In this document: positions 3,519 to 27,448 of the stretch, one piece after another
How positions within the stretch are numbered: the stretch's first letter is position 1
Layout: every line of letters starts with the position of its first letter
Assembly (NCBI GenBank): GCA_023399095.1
Contig: JAEWQS010000040.1
Location: 3,225-67,224 of the forward strand
Source: Bacillota bacterium
Lineage (GTDB): Bacteria > Bacillota > Clostridia > Christensenellales > SZUA-584
Length of the DNA stretch: 64,000 nucleotides
Reading direction: 5' to 3'
Position numbers and translations under genes: made by a program
Notes under the pieces: model-generated
The model's input: only the letters and a program-made list of their open reading frames with translations
The model's database searches: none
Told to the model about the DNA's origin: nothing

Positions 3519-5018
3519 CTATTCGACAGGCGCCGCAGGCACGGTATCAGGGTCCGCCCCGTTCACATAGATAACGCCTTTAAAGGCTTTGTATGTATCC
3601 TTTGAGAAGAACTCAGATTTCACCACATCTCCCGCATCATTAACATACTGCTTGTACACTTCCCAAGTTTGACCATCGCGTGACTTCACCCATTCAACAG
3701 TTTTACCGGCTCCAATCGGAGCGCCCTCGGGATCTGTGGCCGCATTATAATGGTATTCGGTTTCGGGCGCTTTGTCAGTTGCCACCAGCGTCGTCTTAAA
3801 TTCAACTTTATAACCATGCGTCAGCGGCGGCCCATAAACGTTGATAGTCAGTTCCTTCTCCTCTTCATCAAGCACCGTTTCAATATAAACAGGCATGTCA
3901 TAAGGATTGGATATCTTTAATTCGGGCCCGCCTGTACTAATCGTTGCATCCATTCCCTTGGGTATGTACGACGAAGGCCAACTGTGCGCCTTTCTCTCAA
4001 CAATCGTGAGCTCTGCACGTATGGACGCGTTATAAAGCGTACTTGACACCTGACAGACACCGCCGCCCACCTCCATACGGTATTTACCGTCTGCAATACC
4101 CGGCGCGTAAGCCCAGCCAACCGTCTTGACTGTATCATCGTTTCTCGGGCCTGCGGCGTCGTTGATGGACCACGTTTCACCAGGCTGTATAATGACGCCG
4201 TTCACGATCCCCGACATGATGCGGATATTGGTCACACGGTCGGCATTATCGAGACCGCTTTCGTCAAAAGACGATGTAAAGGTACCAATGAGCTGTGTGT
4301 TGGCCTTGAGCGTCGCCACGTCAATGCTCGGGTTTGTGATAATCGCGGGCGCTGCCACCACACCATAATTGCCATTGTTAATATTATCGCTTATCAGCTT
4401 GGCAAACGCCGATGCATCGATATCCACGCCTGTGACCGCTTCAATATACTTGAAACGACCTTCACCTTGCATATCGTCCAGTATCTCCAGCGTCGCATCC
4501 TGCGGCAGCATATCAATCGTGGGTTTGAGTGCGGTCAGCTTTTCTAAAACGACCGTTTCTTGCGCATACATGCCGAGTTTAAAATCGTAGCCGCTTTCCT
4601 GCGCCTGCGCCTTCTGCTCTCTTACCAAAGCGCCGTCGCCAATCTGTCCGAACTTCATCGCTTCCCTGAGTGTATGATTGATACTGGAGGTGATTCCAAG
4701 ATCCTTCGCGCTCAGCGTATATTCACGACCGCCAGCTGTGAAAGTATACGTGAATCCGTCCTCCATTTGCTGCGAAACAGACTGAAGTGTATCGTTTGTG
4801 AGTGCTTCCTCCATGGTTTGGCCTGAAATATCAACACCCTCTACAGTTACGCCCTGTATAAAATGACCACTCTCCATCAATCTGGCTTCGCGTTCTTCAA
4901 CTGTCATTCCCGCACCGGACAAAAGAAGTATCAACACCACGATCAGCGCAATAATTAATATGCCAAATGCCATAAGCATCATTTTAAATATCTGGTTATT
5001 CCTTGTTCGCCTTTGCAT
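3519..5018 (-). CDS. VanW-family protein, paralogue of the neighbouring gene
   Basis: 499 aa with the same architecture: TM anchor, then GGVCQVSSTLYNASIRAELTIVERKAHS...GMDATIS. Confidence 0.8.
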   Translation of the reverse strand: MQRRTRNNQIFKMMLMAFGILIIALIVVLILLLSGAGMTVEEREARLMESGHFIQGVTVEGVDISGQTMEEALTNDTLQSVSQQMEDGFTYTFTAGGREYTLSAKDLGITSSINHTLREAMKFGQIGDGALVREQKAQAQESGYDFKLGMYAQETVVLEKLTALKPTIDMLPQDATLEILDDMQGEGRFKYIEAVTGVDIDASAFAKLISDNINNGNYGVVAAPAIITNPSIDVATLKANTQLIGTFTSSFDESGLDNADRVTNIRIMSGIVNGVIIQPGETWSINDAAGPRNDDTVKTVGWAYAPGIADGKYRMEVGGGVCQVSSTLYNASIRAELTIVERKAHSWPSSYIPKGMDATISTGGPELKISNPYDMPVYIETVLDEEEKELTINVYGPPLTHGYKVEFKTTLVATDKAPETEYHYNAATDPEGAPIGAGKTVEWVKSRDGQTWEVYKQYVNDAGDVVKSEFFSKDTYKAFKGVIYVNGADPDTVPAAPVE

Positions 5019-7660: not shown

Positions 7661-10120
7661 TTAGATAAACAGATTGGTGTCTGAGCTTTCCGCAGCACTC
7701 AGATACGAGGCCACACCGGCCAGCTCAACGCCGTCAATCAGCTCTTCCTTATGGATGCCCATCACATCCATCGACATCGTACAGGCCACCATTCGCACAC
7801 CGCTCTTTTTCGCCTGAGCGATGAGCTCATCCAGCGTGGCGACGTTCTTTTTCTTCATGATGCCCTTCATCATTTTGGAACCCATGCCCAGCATGTTCAT
7901 TTTGGACAATTTGAGTTTTGTCGTCCCGCGCGGCATCATTGCACCAAACATCTTCTCAATAAACGTCTTTTTCACTTTCACCTTATCACGGCGGCGCAGA
8001 ATATTAAGCCCCCAGAATGTGAAGAACATGGTCACACGGCGGCCCATTGCCGCCGAACCGTTGGCGATGATAAAGCTTGCCAGCGCTTTATCCATGTCCC
8101 CGCTGAAAACCACCATCGATTTATCATTTCCCGTGGCAGACACGCAAGCACCGCCCGTCGCCGCTTCGCCTTCGCAGCCCTTTTTGATCCAGACCGAGAA
8201 ACTGCTATCCAGCTTTTCGCCCTTCATATACGTGTTCTGCGTGCGCCCGCACCAAGAAGATGCATCCGCGAAAAATCCGGGATCGGTCGACGTGATGTTG
8301 ATCACATCGCCGTCTTTGGCATCCAGCATTGCTTCATAAAGCTTGATCACCGGGCCGGGGCATTGCAGCCCGCACGCGTCCACTTTTATGGTGTTTGCCG
8401 AATCAACGGCCGCTTTGGAAACGCTATTATCCGTCTTGACTGGCTTTGGGCCGTCGTTTGCGCTCATCGTATAATCCTTGCTGGCCACGCGGTAGGTCGT
8501 GTATCCGCCGGCCAGATTGCGCACATCCTTGAAACCGTTCTGCATGAGCAACCGGCTTGCAATATAGGCGCGTATACCCACTGCACAGTAAACGATGTAT
8601 GTTTTCTTTTTATCCAGCGTCTGCATCCTTTCCCTGAGGCTGTCCACGGGAATGTTGATGCTGCCGGGAATGTTGCCCATCGAGACTTCGGCTGCGGTGC
8701 GCACATCAAGATAAACCACATCATCAGGCAGCGATTTTAATTCACTGAACGTGATGTTTTTGACGATCCCTGCAAGAATGTTATCCGCAGAGTAGCCTCC
8801 CATATTCACCGGATCTTTTGCGGAGGAATACGGCGGCGCGTAGCACAGTTCAAGCTCTTCCAAGTCATAGACCGTGGCGCCGAAATGCATGGCCGATGCC
8901 ACCACATCGATGCGCTTATCGACGCCCTTATAGCCCACAGCCTGCGCGCCCAGCACGCGGCCTTCCGGCCTTTCGAATATCAGTTTCATGGTCAGCGGCA
9001 TACCGCCCGGATAGTAGCCCGCGTGAGACAGCGGGTGCATCATTGTCACGTTATAATCTTCATTTATCCTTTTGCCTGCGCTGATAAGCTGCTTCTCACT
9101 GAGCCCCGTTGAAGCCACGGTCATGTCGAACACCTTGGCCACCGACGACCCAAGAGTCCCTTTATATTTTCTGCCCATGCCGCAAATGTTGTCCGCAGCC
9201 ATACGCCCCATTTTATTCGCTGGGCCTGCAAGCGGAATCATCGCTTTTTCATGCGTCACATAGTTTTCGACCTCCACCACATCACCCACGGCGTAGATGC
9301 TTTCGTCGGACGTGCGCAAAGACGCATCCACCACGATACCGCCGCGCGCATTGGTTTTTAGCCCGCTTTCCACCGCAAGCGCCGAATTCGGCCGCACGCC
9401 AATTGCGAGTATCACGATATCTGCCGGTATGCTGTGCTTATCCGTCACCACAAGAACGCCGCTGCCGGTTTCCTCAAAGCGCTCCACGCGTTCGCTGAGC
9501 GCAAGGTTCACACCGTTATCCACAAGATGCTTGTGAAGAACCTGCGCCATTTCGTAGTCGATGGGCGGCATCACTTGATCCAGCATTTCGACCAAGGTCA
9601 CCGATAGACCAGCATGCACCAGGTTTTCCGCCATTTCTATGCCGATAAAACCACCGCCCACCACGACGGCGTTTTTGGCATCCTGCTGCTTCATTGTCGA
9701 AATAATCGCGTCCATGTCGGGTATATTCCAAAGCGGCTTGATTCTGTCGCTTTTTATACCCGGCAGGTTGGGCACAACAGGCGTTGAGCCCGGAGAAAGC
9801 ACCAGCACATCATAGCTTTCTGTATATGTGTGGCCTTCGCGCGTCACGGTGACGGTCTTGGCCTGTCTGTCTATGCTTTTCACCTCGCTATTGACCCTCA
9901 CATCGACATTAAAACGCGCATGAAAGGATTCGGGCGTTTGGAGCAGCAGCTTTTCGCGCTGGTCTATCACACCGCCCACATGGTAAGGCAAGCCGCAGTT
10001 CGCAAATGAAATGTACGGCCCTTTTTCAATCATAATGATCTCTGCTGACTCATCAAGACGTCTTAAACGCGCCGCACAGCTTGCGCCTCCGGCCACACCG
10101 CCTACAATTATAACTTTCAT
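7661..10120 (-). CDS. CoA-disulfide reductase / NADH-oxidase-family flavoprotein fused to rhodanese, TusA(SirA)-like and DsrE/DsrF-like domains
   Basis: 819 aa. N-terminus VIIVGGVAGGASCAARLRR...ANCGLPY (FAD motif and redox Cys). Rhodanese CAVGIRA active-site loop. TusA-like CGLQCPGP motif. C-terminal DsrE-like SMVVFSGDMDKA...FFTFWGL. Confidence 0.85.
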   Translation of the reverse strand: MKVIIVGGVAGGASCAARLRRLDESAEIIMIEKGPYISFANCGLPYHVGGVIDQREKLLLQTPESFHARFNVDVRVNSEVKSIDRQAKTVTVTREGHTYTESYDVLVLSPGSTPVVPNLPGIKSDRIKPLWNIPDMDAIISTMKQQDAKNAVVVGGGFIGIEMAENLVHAGLSVTLVEMLDQVMPPIDYEMAQVLHKHLVDNGVNLALSERVERFEETGSGVLVVTDKHSIPADIVILAIGVRPNSALAVESGLKTNARGGIVVDASLRTSDESIYAVGDVVEVENYVTHEKAMIPLAGPANKMGRMAADNICGMGRKYKGTLGSSVAKVFDMTVASTGLSEKQLISAGKRINEDYNVTMMHPLSHAGYYPGGMPLTMKLIFERPEGRVLGAQAVGYKGVDKRIDVVASAMHFGATVYDLEELELCYAPPYSSAKDPVNMGGYSADNILAGIVKNITFSELKSLPDDVVYLDVRTAAEVSMGNIPGSINIPVDSLRERMQTLDKKKTYIVYCAVGIRAYIASRLLMQNGFKDVRNLAGGYTTYRVASKDYTMSANDGPKPVKTDNSVSKAAVDSANTIKVDACGLQCPGPVIKLYEAMLDAKDGDVINITSTDPGFFADASSWCGRTQNTYMKGEKLDSSFSVWIKKGCEGEAATGGACVSATGNDKSMVVFSGDMDKALASFIIANGSAAMGRRVTMFFTFWGLNILRRRDKVKVKKTFIEKMFGAMMPRGTTKLKLSKMNMLGMGSKMMKGIMKKKNVATLDELIAQAKKSGVRMVACTMSMDVMGIHKEELIDGVELAGVASYLSAAESSDTNLFI

Positions 10121-24857: not shown

Positions 24858-24895
24858 GAGCATGGACGCTCAATAAAAAAATTTCATGGAGGAAA
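24858..24895 (+). promoter_or_regulatory. Two CsrA-type binding hairpins in the flagellin 5' leader
   Basis: GAGC-AUGGAC-GCUC (24858-24871) and UUUC-AUGGAG-GAAA (24882-24895). Each presents GGA in a 6-nt loop. The second overlaps the Shine-Dalgarno GGAGG. Confidence 0.55.
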
Positions 24896-24900
24896 TAAAA

Positions 24901-26040
24901 ATGAGAATTAACAACAATCTTATGGCGATGAACACTCATCGTCAGTATGCTGTCAACAACGGCAGCGTGGCCAAAGCAACAGAAAGACTGTCCTCGGGCT
25001 TAAAGATCAACCGCGCCGGTGACGACGCTGCCGGTCTTGCGATTTCCGAGAAGATGAGAGCCCAGATCCGCGGCCTCAACATGGCTTCCAAGAACAGTAA
25101 TGACGCCATCTCGCTCGTCCAGACTGCTGAAGGCGCGCTCACAGAGACGCATTCCATACTGCAACGTATGAACGAGTTGGCTGTGCAGTCGGCTTCTGAC
25201 ACAAACGAAGACGACGTCGACCGTGACGCCCTGCAGGCAGAATTCACAGCGCTTCGCAGCGAAATCGACGACATTGCCAACAAGACAACCTTCAACAACA
25301 AGAAGTTGCTCAATGGTGACTTCGGTACGGAATATTCCATCGCTGCCGGGGCTGGAAGCGACGTGCAATTGTATGACAACGGTATTTCTAATATCAATTT
25401 TGAGGGCTTCACTTCATCCGATGTGGGCGTTGCACATTCAATTGTTTTAACTGTTGCTGGCGGTGTCATAACAGGTGCACAACTAGACGGAACAACTGCC
25501 GCAGCAATGACTGGGGATGGCGCTGCAGGTGCTGGTTCTTTAGTGCTTGATTTCGGCAATGCTGGAATGGTCACTCTTTCTTTCTCGTCTGAACATGGTG
25601 CTTTTACAACTGCTGATGAACTTAATTTTACTGCAACTCAAGATGCCGCTGAAATTCAGACTGGTGCCAACGCCGGAGAAACGCTTGATATCTCAATCAA
25701 AAGCATGAAGGCTGCAGATCTGGACGCTGGCATGGCAGCGGCTGATATCAGCACCAAAGCTGGTGCAACTTTAGCTATCACAAGCACACAGAACGCGATC
25801 AACGCTGTGTCTACACAGCGCGCGAACCTCGGTGCGATTCAGAACAGACTCGAGCACAAGATCAACAACCTCAACACATCGGCCGAGAATCTGCAGGCCG
25901 CCGAAAGCCGCATCCGCGACATCGACATGGCTGCAGAAATGACCAACTTCACGACACAGAACATTCTGGTCCAGGCCGCTACGGCGATGTTGGCTCAGGC
26001 GAACTCTGCTCCGCAGAACGTCCTGTCGCTGCTTAAGTAA
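24901..26040 (+). CDS. Flagellin
   Basis: 379 aa from the ATG at 24901: MRINNNLMAMNTHRQ...LSSGLKINRAGDDAAGLAISEKMR; C-terminus LGAIQNRLEH...AMLAQANSAPQNVLSLLK. Confidence 0.95.
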   Translation: MRINNNLMAMNTHRQYAVNNGSVAKATERLSSGLKINRAGDDAAGLAISEKMRAQIRGLNMASKNSNDAISLVQTAEGALTETHSILQRMNELAVQSASDTNEDDVDRDALQAEFTALRSEIDDIANKTTFNNKKLLNGDFGTEYSIAAGAGSDVQLYDNGISNINFEGFTSSDVGVAHSIVLTVAGGVITGAQLDGTTAAAMTGDGAAGAGSLVLDFGNAGMVTLSFSSEHGAFTTADELNFTATQDAAEIQTGANAGETLDISIKSMKAADLDAGMAAADISTKAGATLAITSTQNAINAVSTQRANLGAIQNRLEHKINNLNTSAENLQAAESRIRDIDMAAEMTNFTTQNILVQAATAMLAQANSAPQNVLSLLK

Positions 26041-26084: not shown

Positions 26085-26117
26085 CAGCCGTCGGATTTAT
26101 CCGGCGGCTGTTCTTTT
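26085..26117 (+). terminator. Rho-independent terminator of the flagellin gene
   Basis: 10-bp stem CAGCCGTCGG-atttat-CCGGCGGCTG followed by TTCTTTT. Confidence 0.75.
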
Positions 26118-26129
26118 GGCATTTAATGC

Positions 26130-26506
26130 GGGCCGGCATGGAAACCGGCCCCTACGGTTCGTGACGCATTTGTTCGGGCATTCCGTTGGGGCGGGTCTCC
26201 GCCTGTTGCATCGCGGCATGATTGACGCGGGAGGGTATGGAGGCCCTCCCCTACGGTTTGTGACGTATTTGTTCCGGCATCCTATAGGGGCGGTCTCCGT
26301 CTGTGCCCCGAATGGGGTATGCGCGCCCGTCACGTCACGGCATGATTGACGCCGGAGGGTATGGAAGCCCTCCCCTACGGTTCGTGACGCATTTGTTCCG
26401 ATATTCCTGTAGGGGCGGGTCTCCGCGCCCGCCCGTCGCATGATGGCAATGTTCCAACGCGGGAGGGCGTGGAAGCCCTCCCCTACGGTTCGTGCGTATA
26501 TTCGTT
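26130..26506. repeat. Array of GC-rich REP-like hairpins (four A-type, three B-type) in head-to-head doublets
   Basis: A-type, read on the minus strand, is GTAG + GGGAGGG-N6-8-CCCTCCC (variant GGGCCGG/CCGGCCC), at 26130-26155, 26229-26254, 26353-26378 and 26461-26486. B-type, on the plus strand, is GTAG + GGGCGGG-tctccgcg-CCCGCCC, best copy at 26409-26434. Degenerate B copies start at 26185 and 26284. Confidence 0.85.
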
Positions 26507-27037
26507 ACAATGATACTCATCCAAATGCCACTTGACCGGATTTGTATCAATGTATCGCCATACGTCAAGGTACTCGCGTTCATCACGAATAATACGATCA
26601 TAAAATGATCGCTGCCACAATTTATCGTATTGTGTCTCATGTATATCGTTATATCGTTTGGTCGTAAATGATTTAAACTGCCCTATGACGGTTTGCAGTG
26701 GAATATTTGTGCTATCACCACGTACATTTAGTCATTGCAGTAATACAATCATGTGAACATGGTTGGGCATAATGACGTATTTTGTGACATTTACATTCTC
26801 GCAGTTTTCGTCTATATGCTGTATCGACTTGTTTATCTCATGACCAATTTCAGTCAGAATGATTTGCGGGTTAACAGTGTCATTTAATACATGTGATAAA
26901 ACCGGCATCCTTCCGAATGTACAGATGGTCACAAAATAAGCGCCGTTTTGCGCATAGTCATAATCCGGAATCCGCAGACTTTTTCGACATGGCATCTCTT
27001 TTTGCATGATTCCACTATATGACTTTTTATTGACCAT
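26483..27037 (-). pseudogene. REP-associated tyrosine transposase-like (RAYT / IS200-type HUH Y1) gene interrupted by an in-frame TGA
   Basis: N-terminal part from the track: RIPDYDYAQNGAYFVTICTFGR...YVIMPNHVHMIV (HUH motif). After the TGA at 26732-26734 the same frame continues by hand translation: LNVRGDSTNIPLQTVIGQFKSFTTKRYNDIHETQYDKLWQRSFYDRIIRDEREYLDVWRYIDTNPVKWHLDEYHCNEYTHEP*. This segment carries the catalytic-Tyr-type motif RYIxxNP. Total 184 codons. Confidence 0.8.
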
Positions 27038-27054
27038 CGCAATATATTATTGAC

Positions 27055-27195
27055 GGGAGGGCGTGGAAGCCCTTCCCTACGGTTCGCTGAGATTATTTCT
27101 TACCTGTAGGGGCGGGTCTCCGCGCCCGCCCGTTGCATCGCGGCAATATTCCTCATTCGGGCCGGCATGGAAACCGGCCCCTACGGTTTTTGATG
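27055..27195. repeat. Second REP-like cluster on the other side of the RAYT-like gene
   Basis: A-type 27055-27080 (GGGAGGGC...GCCCTTCCC + CTAC), B-type 27106-27133 (GTAGGGGCGGGTCTCCGCGCCCGCCCGT), A-variant 27159-27184 (GGGCCGG...CCGGCCC + CTAC). Confidence 0.85.
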
Positions 27196-27199
27196 CCAC

Positions 27200-27224
27200 A
27201 AAAAAAGCCCCTGTTACAGAGGCT
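27200..27224 (-). terminator. Rho-independent terminator after csrA
   Basis: Minus strand reads AGCCTCTG-taa-CAGGGGCT followed by TTTTTTTG. Confidence 0.7.
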
Positions 27225-27241
27225 CTCACGTTTAGTTCTAT

Positions 27242-27448
27242 TTATTTTCCAAATGAAATGGCCGGAGTTTTGGATGCGACACGATTGAGGTTAATCGTTT
27301 CTTCGAGCAGCTCATTGCGGTAAATGCGCATTTCCTTGGGGGCGTTTATGCCGATGCGGACGCGGTCACCCTCTATGGCCAGAATTTTGATCTCAACATC
27401 CTGGTCAAGCGTGATCCCCTCACCCGTTTTTCTCGACAGCACCAGCAT
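27242..27448 (-). CDS. csrA: Carbon storage regulator CsrA (flagellar type)
   Basis: 68 aa: MLVLSRKTGEGITLDQDVEIKILAIEGDRVRIGINAPKEMRIYRNEL. Confidence 0.95.
   Translation of the reverse strand: MLVLSRKTGEGITLDQDVEIKILAIEGDRVRIGINAPKEMRIYRNELLEETINLNRVASKTPAISFGK

Follow-up and report, generated by a model that had tools for sequence, protein, structure and literature searches.

What is the element that lies between the flagellin gene hag and csrA in an uncultured Clostridia bacterium, and what are the short hairpins that crowd around its single gene? The 64,000-nucleotide stretch analysed here (hereafter the window; contig JAEWQS010000040.1 of assembly GCA_023399095.1, positions 3,225 to 67,224) contains, between the terminators of the two neighbours (26126-27196), a single A+T-rich gene together with ten short elements rich in G+C. 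The elements resemble repetitive extragenic palindromes (REPs), and the gene encodes a protein of the REP-associated tyrosine transposase (RAYT) type. The locus is very probably a REPtron, namely a chromosomally resident single-copy RAYT with cognate REP clusters on both sides, placed in the hag-csrA terminator-to-terminator gap. In the definition of REPtrons by Quentin et al. (2018, PMC6006769), the GT[AG]G-footed REPs lie no more than 1 kb from the gene. Most likely, the window locus is a REPtron that lost its activity recently and whose repeats have become passive DNA; it is probably inert, because the enzyme is truncated ahead of its tyrosine. The initial annotation had proposed a system of REPINs (inverted REP doublets) and RAYT in a Clostridia-type host: the RAYT gene, the GTAG doublets and the uncultured Clostridia host all stand, but the window gene is a pseudogene.

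The gene consists of one frame of 184 codons, in which the ATG at 27007 is likely the true start. It possesses the HUH (histidine-hydrophobic-histidine) motif NHVHMIV, with NHVH at residues 92-95 and the histidines H93 and H95 at 26761-26753, in addition to WQR and the tyrosine motif RYIDTNP, of which YIDTNP spans 26554-26537 and Y162 lies at 26554-26552. Both the HUH and the tyrosine motif had been noticed by the initial annotation in a gene flanked by arrays, as is the case. Alignment with 14 homologues showed N92, H93, H95, W141, Q142, R143, Y162 and N166 to be among the invariant residues; within YIDTNP, the Y, I and N are invariant among the 15 sequences and the P is conserved in at least 90% of them. 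The Y---NP signature marks the REP-associated class, compared to Y---Q in the IS200 subclass 1.1 (PMC6006769). Profile search yielded 30.1 bits against Pfam Y1_Tnp (PF01797; cut-off 23), and the best NCBIfam match was REP_Tyr_transpos (NF047646) with 71.1 bits, a 45-bit lead over the IS200 family at 25 bits (cut-off 55). More than 3,400 homologues were found, most of them unnamed; the named ones are labelled RayT or “putative transposase” by JGI, and their organism names in NCBI/nr are Clostridia, Bacillota or Oscillospiraceae.

As the sequence alone was too weak for a match in the PDB, where phmmer reached only TnpAREP of E. coli (PDB 4ER8) at E = 0.5, we used a structure model. The AlphaFold2 model of an intact orthologue (P0002), with a pLDDT of 90, retrieved exclusively Y1 transposases among its 30 best PDB matches, and the superposition against 4ER8 gave both the best TM-score (0.62) and the best RMSD (3.8 Å). 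In addition, no tnpB is present at the locus, and the window holds one copy of the gene. The profile matches and the predicted fold support the assignment of the gene to the RAYT-type Y1 HUH enzymes rather than to canonical IS200 TnpA, a distinction that the initial annotation had left to a profile or BLAST search and a phylogeny.

The frame is interrupted by a single TGA at 26734-26732 (codon 102), which falls between the HUH motif and the catalytic tyrosine. At this position all 14 homologues have Ser, encoded by TCA or TCG in the orthologues. Recoding of the TGA was ruled out, given that the flagellin gene stops with TAA and that the orthologues have a Ser codon. The window gene should be flagged as a pseudogene. 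At the 3' end, its stop codon is the TAG of the GTAG foot of hairpin A4 (26483-26486); the orthologues stop a few codons earlier, at a stop that was removed here by a TAA-to-TAT change.

The two closest proteins, with 82% identity, are encoded at the same place between csrA and hag in two other assemblies (L118 and L119), in the shared gene order FlgK-FlgL-FliW-CsrA-RAYT-(flagellin, convergent)-FliF. Both genes (proteins P0001 and P0002) are intact and are accompanied on both sides by A/B arrays of differing length. The pairwise dN/dS (ratio of nonsynonymous to synonymous substitution rates) among the three organisms is 0.16-0.19, at a dS of 0.6-0.9; therefore the gene has been under purifying selection and the nonsense mutation in the window is recent. 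Low copy number, vertical inheritance and the lack of tnpB, which are expected of a REPtron, are all seen here: one copy in 64 kb, at a csrA/hag site shared with L118 and L119. All host genomes are metagenome-assembled (MAGs) and come from uncultured Clostridia/Bacillota, and the nearest named group is the Christensenellaceae, with ~60% FlgL identity.

The closest GTDB species representatives do not have the RAYT gene. L120, which is about as distant as L118 and L119 (~85% nucleotide identity), possesses no gene but a 173-nt spacer with four decayed A/B remnants (7667-7840). Similarly, L126 (7700-8000) has no gene, and its csrA-hag spacer contains a solo A-type hairpin and long-form remnants. 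More distant relatives show no hairpins at the csrA-hag site. The simplest history would be an ancestral REPtron between csrA and hag that was lost in some descendants, leaving orphaned hairpins to decay; the sister species would represent this later stage, with the gene gone and the hairpins decaying.

The hairpins are of two types, arranged on the plus strand in the order A1, B1', A2, B2', A3, B3, A4, gene, A5, B4, A6 (Table 1). Every A is oriented as the gene, and every B is oriented oppositely. Read on the minus strand, the six A-type elements consist of GTAG followed by a G+C stem of 7-9 bp and a loop of 6-8 nt; the stems are GGGAGGG/CCCTCCC or GGGCCGG/CCGGCCC, and the loops are TTTCCATG, CTTCCATA or TTCCAC. 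The B type, read on the plus strand, is GTAGGGGCGGG-TCTCCGCG-CCCGCCC and exists in two intact and two decayed copies. The initial count of at least six A and three to four B elements thus holds. With respect to the gene, four A and three B elements are located downstream, and two A and one B upstream, so that GT[AG]G-footed hairpins lie within 1 kb on both sides. The motif GTAGGGGMGGG, allowing at most one mismatch, has nine matches in the 64 kb compared to 0.7 expected (none of 100 shuffles reached nine), and all nine fall inside 26145-27184. Moreover, an unbiased scan of the 64 kb for GTAG plus a G+C hairpin returned eight elements, every one at the hag-csrA locus, and nhmmer with A and B profiles found no additional copy in the window. 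Search against Rfam revealed no family, with chance-level matches far below the gathering scores.

Some units of both types are long forms, in which a nested GCCCC-GRRT-GGGGT hairpin sits in the loop (26283-26331 in the window; 10520-11390 in L118). In L118, about seven long-form units follow the RAYT gene, and all A-type units are long-form. The nested insert of B2' is also present in units of L118 and L126.

Adjacent A and B elements are spaced 22-30 nt apart. The two head-to-head pairs singled out by the initial annotation, 26353-26378 with 26409-26434 and 27055-27080 with 27106-27133, have spacers of 30 and 25 nt, respectively, and were described correctly. A/B doublets of the alternating arrays fold into long imperfect hairpins, as is typical of REPINs. 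A5 and B4 form an 85-nt hairpin (-25.1 kcal/mol, z -5.4), B3 and A4 an 84-nt hairpin (-26.2 kcal/mol, z -4.0), and B4 and A6 a further long hairpin (-23.1 kcal/mol, z -2.8). A3 and B3 do not fold in this way (z -0.7), leaving three of four doublets that do. Because the two types alternate, neighbouring A and B elements are inverted near-copies that, as single strands, can fold into ~85-nt hairpins similar to REPINs or to bacterial interspersed mosaic elements (BIMEs). Taken singly, the hairpins are only modestly stabilised relative to shuffled sequence of high G+C content (z -0.4 to -3.4), and the support for single hairpins is their recurrence in register together with covariation, not energy. 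Among 43 distinct hairpin variants we counted 47 double-sided stem changes versus 10 expected from shuffles (none of 500 shuffles reached this number), distributed over five of the seven stem pairs, compared to 3-12 in slid controls. Such strong compensatory variation is the mark of selection on the hairpin; many of these sequences had been retrieved by patterns that contain both arms.

The same hairpin family recurs in many other genomes, among them numerous Clostridia MAGs and members of other phyla. The A-type pattern was found in 37 DNA stretches that come from about 25 MAG assemblies, one of which carries it on as many as six contigs, and the broader A/B pattern at at least 120 loci, including Acidobacteriota, Arenicellales, Myxococcales, Chloroflexi and the cultured Clostridium grantii. 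Among the broad-pattern matches listed, 132 of 140 lie more than 600 nt from any RAYT gene. Exact matches to the 26-mer of A1 were found in 12 metagenome stretches, none with a RAYT in the vicinity. The clade-specific extended A unit (CTACGGTTYGTGACGYATTTGTT) has no metagenome match. In the first 37 loci, the hairpins come in mixed clusters, some with A/B inverted doublets whose members lie 13-30 nt apart, and only 17% of 150 GTAG hairpins are within open reading frames (ORFs) of at least 150 aa, although such ORFs make up 76% of the DNA. BLAST of the window against all motif-bearing loci gave matches confined to the hairpins. The hairpin family behaves as REPs do in other genomes, being dispersed and mostly outside genes.

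Two cultured organisms show further arrangements. Clostridium grantii DSM 8605 carries a 216-nt non-coding repeat, 93% identical on two contigs (L241 3556-3771 and L273 948-1163), in which 111 nt of A+T-rich spacer separate a GTAG hairpin from an inverted one. One of its frames reads VGGGFHAAP ... GGHGNPPLQ with stops between, and it looks like either a long-spacer REPIN or a decayed copy of the core that the hairpins bracket in a RAYT gene. In Acetobacterium fimetarium DSM 8238 (L080), a RAYT homologue is flanked on either side by direct, non-alternating arrays of GTAG-GGGGCGATC-CGC hairpins with a period of 65-80 nt, and an additional array is located ~2.8 kb away.

Compared to the window gene, most homologous RAYT genes carry hairpins inside the coding sequence. 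An in-frame, inverted pair of GTAG hairpins brackets the HUH motif in 52 of 80 homologous RAYT loci (L038-L117), whereas a flanking hairpin of any kind is found in just 33 of the 80. The first hairpin is located near codon 50 on the coding strand, and the second on the opposite strand just past the HUH strand, at a median spacing of 140 nt (for example, 4115-4141 and 4278-4304 in L041, and 4169-4195 and 4327-4353 in L051). These genes are A+T-rich except for two G+C islands of 27 nt (nine codons), which typically encode VGEGLCALP and GGHGNPPLQ, respectively. The in-gene stems vary from gene to gene (31 types) but agree within each gene, where their identity is 0.85; shuffled pairings give 0.58 (0 of 2000). 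It is therefore the DNA or RNA, and not the peptide, that is subject to selection or conversion. The B type of the window corresponds to the first in-gene hairpin and the A type to the second. In one MAG (L044/L277), the in-gene pair of the RAYT and an extragenic doublet on another contig share their stems. The window gene and its two orthologues retain decayed traces alone at both in-gene sites.

In-frame REP insertions in the β3-αC loop have been described as a unique trait of RAYT subclass 2.4 (Quentin et al. 2018, PMC6006769), and one of the two in-gene hairpins of the 52 homologues is located in that loop as well. In-gene REPs are thus not new in principle; the fixed, matched and inverted pair and its prevalence in Clostridia exceed what is given in the text of PMC6006769. 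It is conceivable, but on balance doubtful, that the normal state of the Clostridial RAYT clade is a gene carrying its own REPIN instead of a gene flanked by REPs. If the in-gene pair is functional, it could for instance serve as a protected master copy of the REPIN or as a target for action of the enzyme on the gene or mRNA that encodes it, and would provide a built-in coupling of a domesticated transposase with its repeats. The window lineage would then be a natural variant, one that has lost the pair inside the gene through decay and moved its repeats outside, into flanking arrays.

The same in-gene hairpins raise the possibility that the flanking arrays are relics of RAYT coding sequence, that is, duplicated GGHGNPPLQ and VGEGLCALP segments generated by local duplication and decay, rather than mobilised REPs. 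A is indeed nearly identical to the second in-gene hairpin of the homologues and B to the first, the plus-strand frames of the arrays read GGYGSPPLR and VGAGLRARP, and in the window lineage the in-gene hairpins have decayed while flanking ones exist. However, the similarity to RAYT coding sequence does not extend beyond the 27-nt hairpins, and the A-to-B spacing of the arrays is far from the in-gene median given above. Moreover, other genomes have the same short doublets at a great distance from any RAYT, and one such doublet, in L044/L277, shares its genome with a RAYT with matching in-gene hairpins. We consider this reading very unlikely; it is best seen as a statement on the origin of the two REP types and not as an alternative to their REP status.

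Scarcely probable is a decaying insertion sequence (IS) of the IS200/IS605 type, an autonomous element with A5 and A4 as its left and right ends and the other hairpins as scars of repeated insertion. The window system shares with IS200/IS605 TnpA (IS608, ISDra2) the fold, the HUH/Tyr chemistry and sub-terminal hairpins with a 5' guide tetranucleotide, and the transposases of IS608, ISDra2 and IS200 rank first by E-value among the structural matches. A5 and A4 are both on the coding strand in direct orientation, as in IS608, the G+C content of the gene looks foreign, and the locus is absent from several related species. Nevertheless, the tyrosine motif is Y---NP instead of Y---Q, the IS200 profile score is below its cut-off and far below that of the REP family, and neither a tnpB partner nor a set of near-identical copies, nor even a second copy, is found in the window. 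The chromosomal site is syntenic and common to three organisms at a dS of 0.6-0.9 and a dN/dS of ~0.17, and there are hundreds of sites at which the hairpins stand without the gene.

Equally improbable is that the hairpins are kept for a host function, either as transcription insulators that separate the converging hag and csrA operons or as stabilisers of 3' ends there, or as an RNA with multiple GGA loops that titrates CsrA. The element sits exactly between two terminators, decayed copies outlast the gene in sister species, and REPs of E. coli serve as mRNA stabilisers or terminators (PMC3733652); yet the strong hag terminator lies upstream of the array, the remnants in sister species are decaying rather than conserved, most relatives have no hairpins at the site, and no Rfam family matches. 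When the segments 26129-26486 and 27055-27184 are read in the hag sense, close to csrA and fliW, the loops of all six A-type hairpins show GGA (CAUGGAAA, UAUGGAAG and CGUGGAAG). The resemblance to CsrA-titrating RNAs is superficial and probably a coincidence, since the whole hairpin family has this loop, which recurs at unrelated loci, in unrelated phyla and even inside RAYT frames. Finally, a CRISPR-like or minisatellite array was ruled out by the alternating orientation, the GTAG-footed hairpins and their recurrence at unlinked loci elsewhere; Tandem Repeats Finder called no array in the window because the units, 61-90% identical, are too divergent.

Judged by motifs and described traits, the window system most resembles REPtrons of subclass 2.4 (group 4 of Bertels) or 2.7, with which it shares the NH[IFV]H, WQ and YIxxNP motifs, a short protein of 160-190 aa without C-terminal extension, and GT[AG]G-footed REPs less than 1 kb from the gene. 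The wider Clostridial family also shares with subclass 2.4 the in-frame REPs in the β3-αC loop, and a REP listed for subclass 2.7 (Desulfomonile; GCCGGC-CTCCGT-GCCGGC) resembles the B type. In contrast, the REPs of subclass 2.4 are “long” or “double-foot”, whereas the window elements are short (stem of 7-9 bp) with occasional long forms, and the Clostridial family has two fixed in-gene sites, inverted and mutually matched, both of which are lost from the window gene.

The REPtron of E. coli K-12 (TnpAREP/YafM, with Y and Z2 REPs in BIMEs) likewise combines a single-copy Y1 HUH gene with flanking pairs of two alternating, GTAG-footed REP subtypes, and its transposase gives the best structural superposition on the P0002 model. 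It differs in sequence (19% identity) and belongs to subclass 2.2 (DHLH, WE and YIHYNP motifs). In addition, E. coli REPs need a bulged stem for activity (PMC8266576) and are dispersed in hundreds of copies, whereas the window stems are perfect and no copy was seen outside the locus in the 64 kb. The REPIN-RAYT systems of Pseudomonas (Bertels and Rainey 2011; groups 2 and 3) are similar in that inverted REP doublets fold as a long hairpin and that the RAYT is single-copy and vertically inherited, with repeats decaying once it is lost. However, the two halves of the window doublets are distinct subtypes with different loops, the protein group differs, and the repeats of the window system were seen, within the 64 kb, at the RAYT locus alone.

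The notion in the initial annotation that such systems have been characterised mainly in Proteobacteria is roughly right for the characterised ones, but REP-flanked RAYTs of subclasses 2.4 and 2.7 have been reported from Cyanobacteria, Bacteroidetes and “various phyla” (PMC6006769), and the surprise is therefore smaller than was assumed. No REP family from Firmicutes is among those listed by Di Nocera et al. (2013). In Bertels et al. (2017), Clostridia appear solely in connection with group 1 RAYTs, a group without flanking REPs, and the supplementary text of Quentin et al. contains no Clostridia or Firmicutes name; Firmicutes are not mentioned in the REPIN literature that we searched. What is new is a RAYT/REP system of a known kind in a host group where it has hardly been described.

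By analogy with the enzymes of E. coli, Stenotrophomonas and Marinomonas, in which GTAG guides cleavage (PMC8266576), an intact protein of this type would bind the folded hairpin of single-stranded DNA with the 5' GTAG as a guide, cut beside the hairpin by means of its tyrosine, and then rejoin the strands. As a result, hairpins might be copied or moved, and local arrays expanded or contracted near their own gene.

Several observations weigh against a REPtron. The frame of the window gene is not intact, and enzymatic activity cannot be assumed for a pseudogene; activity in this Clostridial clade is itself predicted by analogy. The curated cut-off of REP_Tyr_transpos (80 bits) is missed by both the window protein (71.1) and its intact relatives (71-77). 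The nearest flanking hairpins, A5 and A4, are direct rather than inverted. Compared to 48% for the window and ~62% for the repeats, the gene has a G+C content of 39%, and this value is 36-39% in all three orthologues (10001-10492 in L118; 10001-10510 in L119), which hints at a foreign origin. Most of all, none of the repeats turned up away from the RAYT locus, either across the 64 kb of the window or in the 20 kb surrounding the orthologue in L118 and in L119, and dispersal, the hallmark of REPs, is thus not seen in the sequence covered for the window lineage.

The surroundings of the element are clear-cut: it begins right after the hag terminator and ends at the csrA terminator, and the neighbours of the RAYT-like gene are flagellar genes, confirming the setting between converging terminators in a flagellar locus. 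The hairpin of the hag terminator (26085-26110) is followed by a T-run and folds as RNA with -29.9 kcal/mol (z -7.6). The csrA terminator hairpin (27227-27203, minus strand) is followed by U7 (-15.6 kcal/mol, z -2.5); it was not called by the consensus terminator scan and was detected through folding, and it is conserved in L118, L119 and L120. Four ORFs of 77-114 codons cross the arrays, at 26097-26441 (-), 26116-26349 (+), 26335-26640 (-) and 27063-27323 (+). All four are artefacts that stem from the G+C-rich repeats, and annotation is likely to mistake them for genes.

Table 1. Features of the hag-csrA locus in window coordinates
Feature	Position	Strand	Evidence
hag (flagellin), left neighbour, converges on element	24886..26040	+	ORF 384 aa; orthologous gene with Flagellin_N/Flagellin_C
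hag intrinsic terminator, 11-bp stem + T-run, left element boundary	26085..26118	+	terminator scan; RNA fold
A1: GTAG + GGGCCGG-TTTCCATG-CCGGCCC	26129..26155	-	repeat search, hairpin scan, nhmmer, folding
B1', decayed B copy, GTTG foot, 3' arm lost	26185..26222	+	repeat family D3; nhmmer B profile E = 8e-4
A2: GTAG + GGGAGGG-CCTCCATA-CCCTCCC	26228..26254	-	repeat search, hairpin scan, nhmmer, folding
B2', decayed long-form B, ATAG foot, nested GCCCC-GAAT-GGGGT hairpin in loop	26283..26331	+	repeat search, folding
A3: GTAG + GGGAGGG-CTTCCATA-CCCTCC	26354..26378	-	repeat search, hairpin scan, nhmmer
B3: GTAG + GGGCGGG-TCTCCGCG-CCCGCCC	26409..26436	+	repeat search, hairpin scan, nhmmer, folding
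A4: GTAG + GGGAGGGC-TTCCAC-GCCCTCCC; TAG = stop codon of RAYT frame	26460..26486	-	hairpin scan; fold z -3.4
RAYT-type (TnpA-REP-like) Y1 HUH pseudogene	26483..27037	-	ORF, Pfam/NCBIfam, alignment, structure model
A5: GTAG + GGAAGGGC-TTCCAC-GCCCTCCC, 18 nt upstream of first ATG	27055..27080	-	repeat search, hairpin scan, nhmmer
B4: GTAG + GGGCGGG-TCTCCGCG-CCCGCCC	27106..27133	+	repeat search, hairpin scan, nhmmer, folding
A6: GTAG + GGGCCGG-TTTCCATG-CCGGCCC	27158..27184	-	repeat search, hairpin scan, nhmmer, folding
csrA terminator, hairpin GAGCCUCUG-UAA-CAGGGGCUU + U-run, right element boundary	27196..27227	-	RNA fold
csrA, right neighbour, converges on element	27242..27448	-	ORF 68 aa; CsrA Pfam match in orthologous loci

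To our knowledge, the RAYT enzymes assayed so far come from E. coli, Stenotrophomonas and Marinomonas only, and REP/RAYT biology is almost entirely Proteobacterial. The present findings point to a GTAG-hairpin/RAYT system with A/B doublets that is common in uncultured Clostridia, including Oscillospirales of the gut and rumen. Cultured carriers, namely Clostridium grantii DSM 8605, Acetobacterium fimetarium DSM 8238 and Pseudoflavonifractor capillosus An827, open it to experiment. For genome annotation, such arrays yield spurious ORFs, such as the first two of those listed above. Moreover, the csrA/hag site offers a small natural time series of the fate of REPs after loss of their RAYT, in three stages: arrays around an intact gene, arrays around a gene with a nonsense mutation, and decaying hairpins where the gene has gone, the last exemplified by the spacers of L120 and L126 as a natural case of REP decay after transposase loss.

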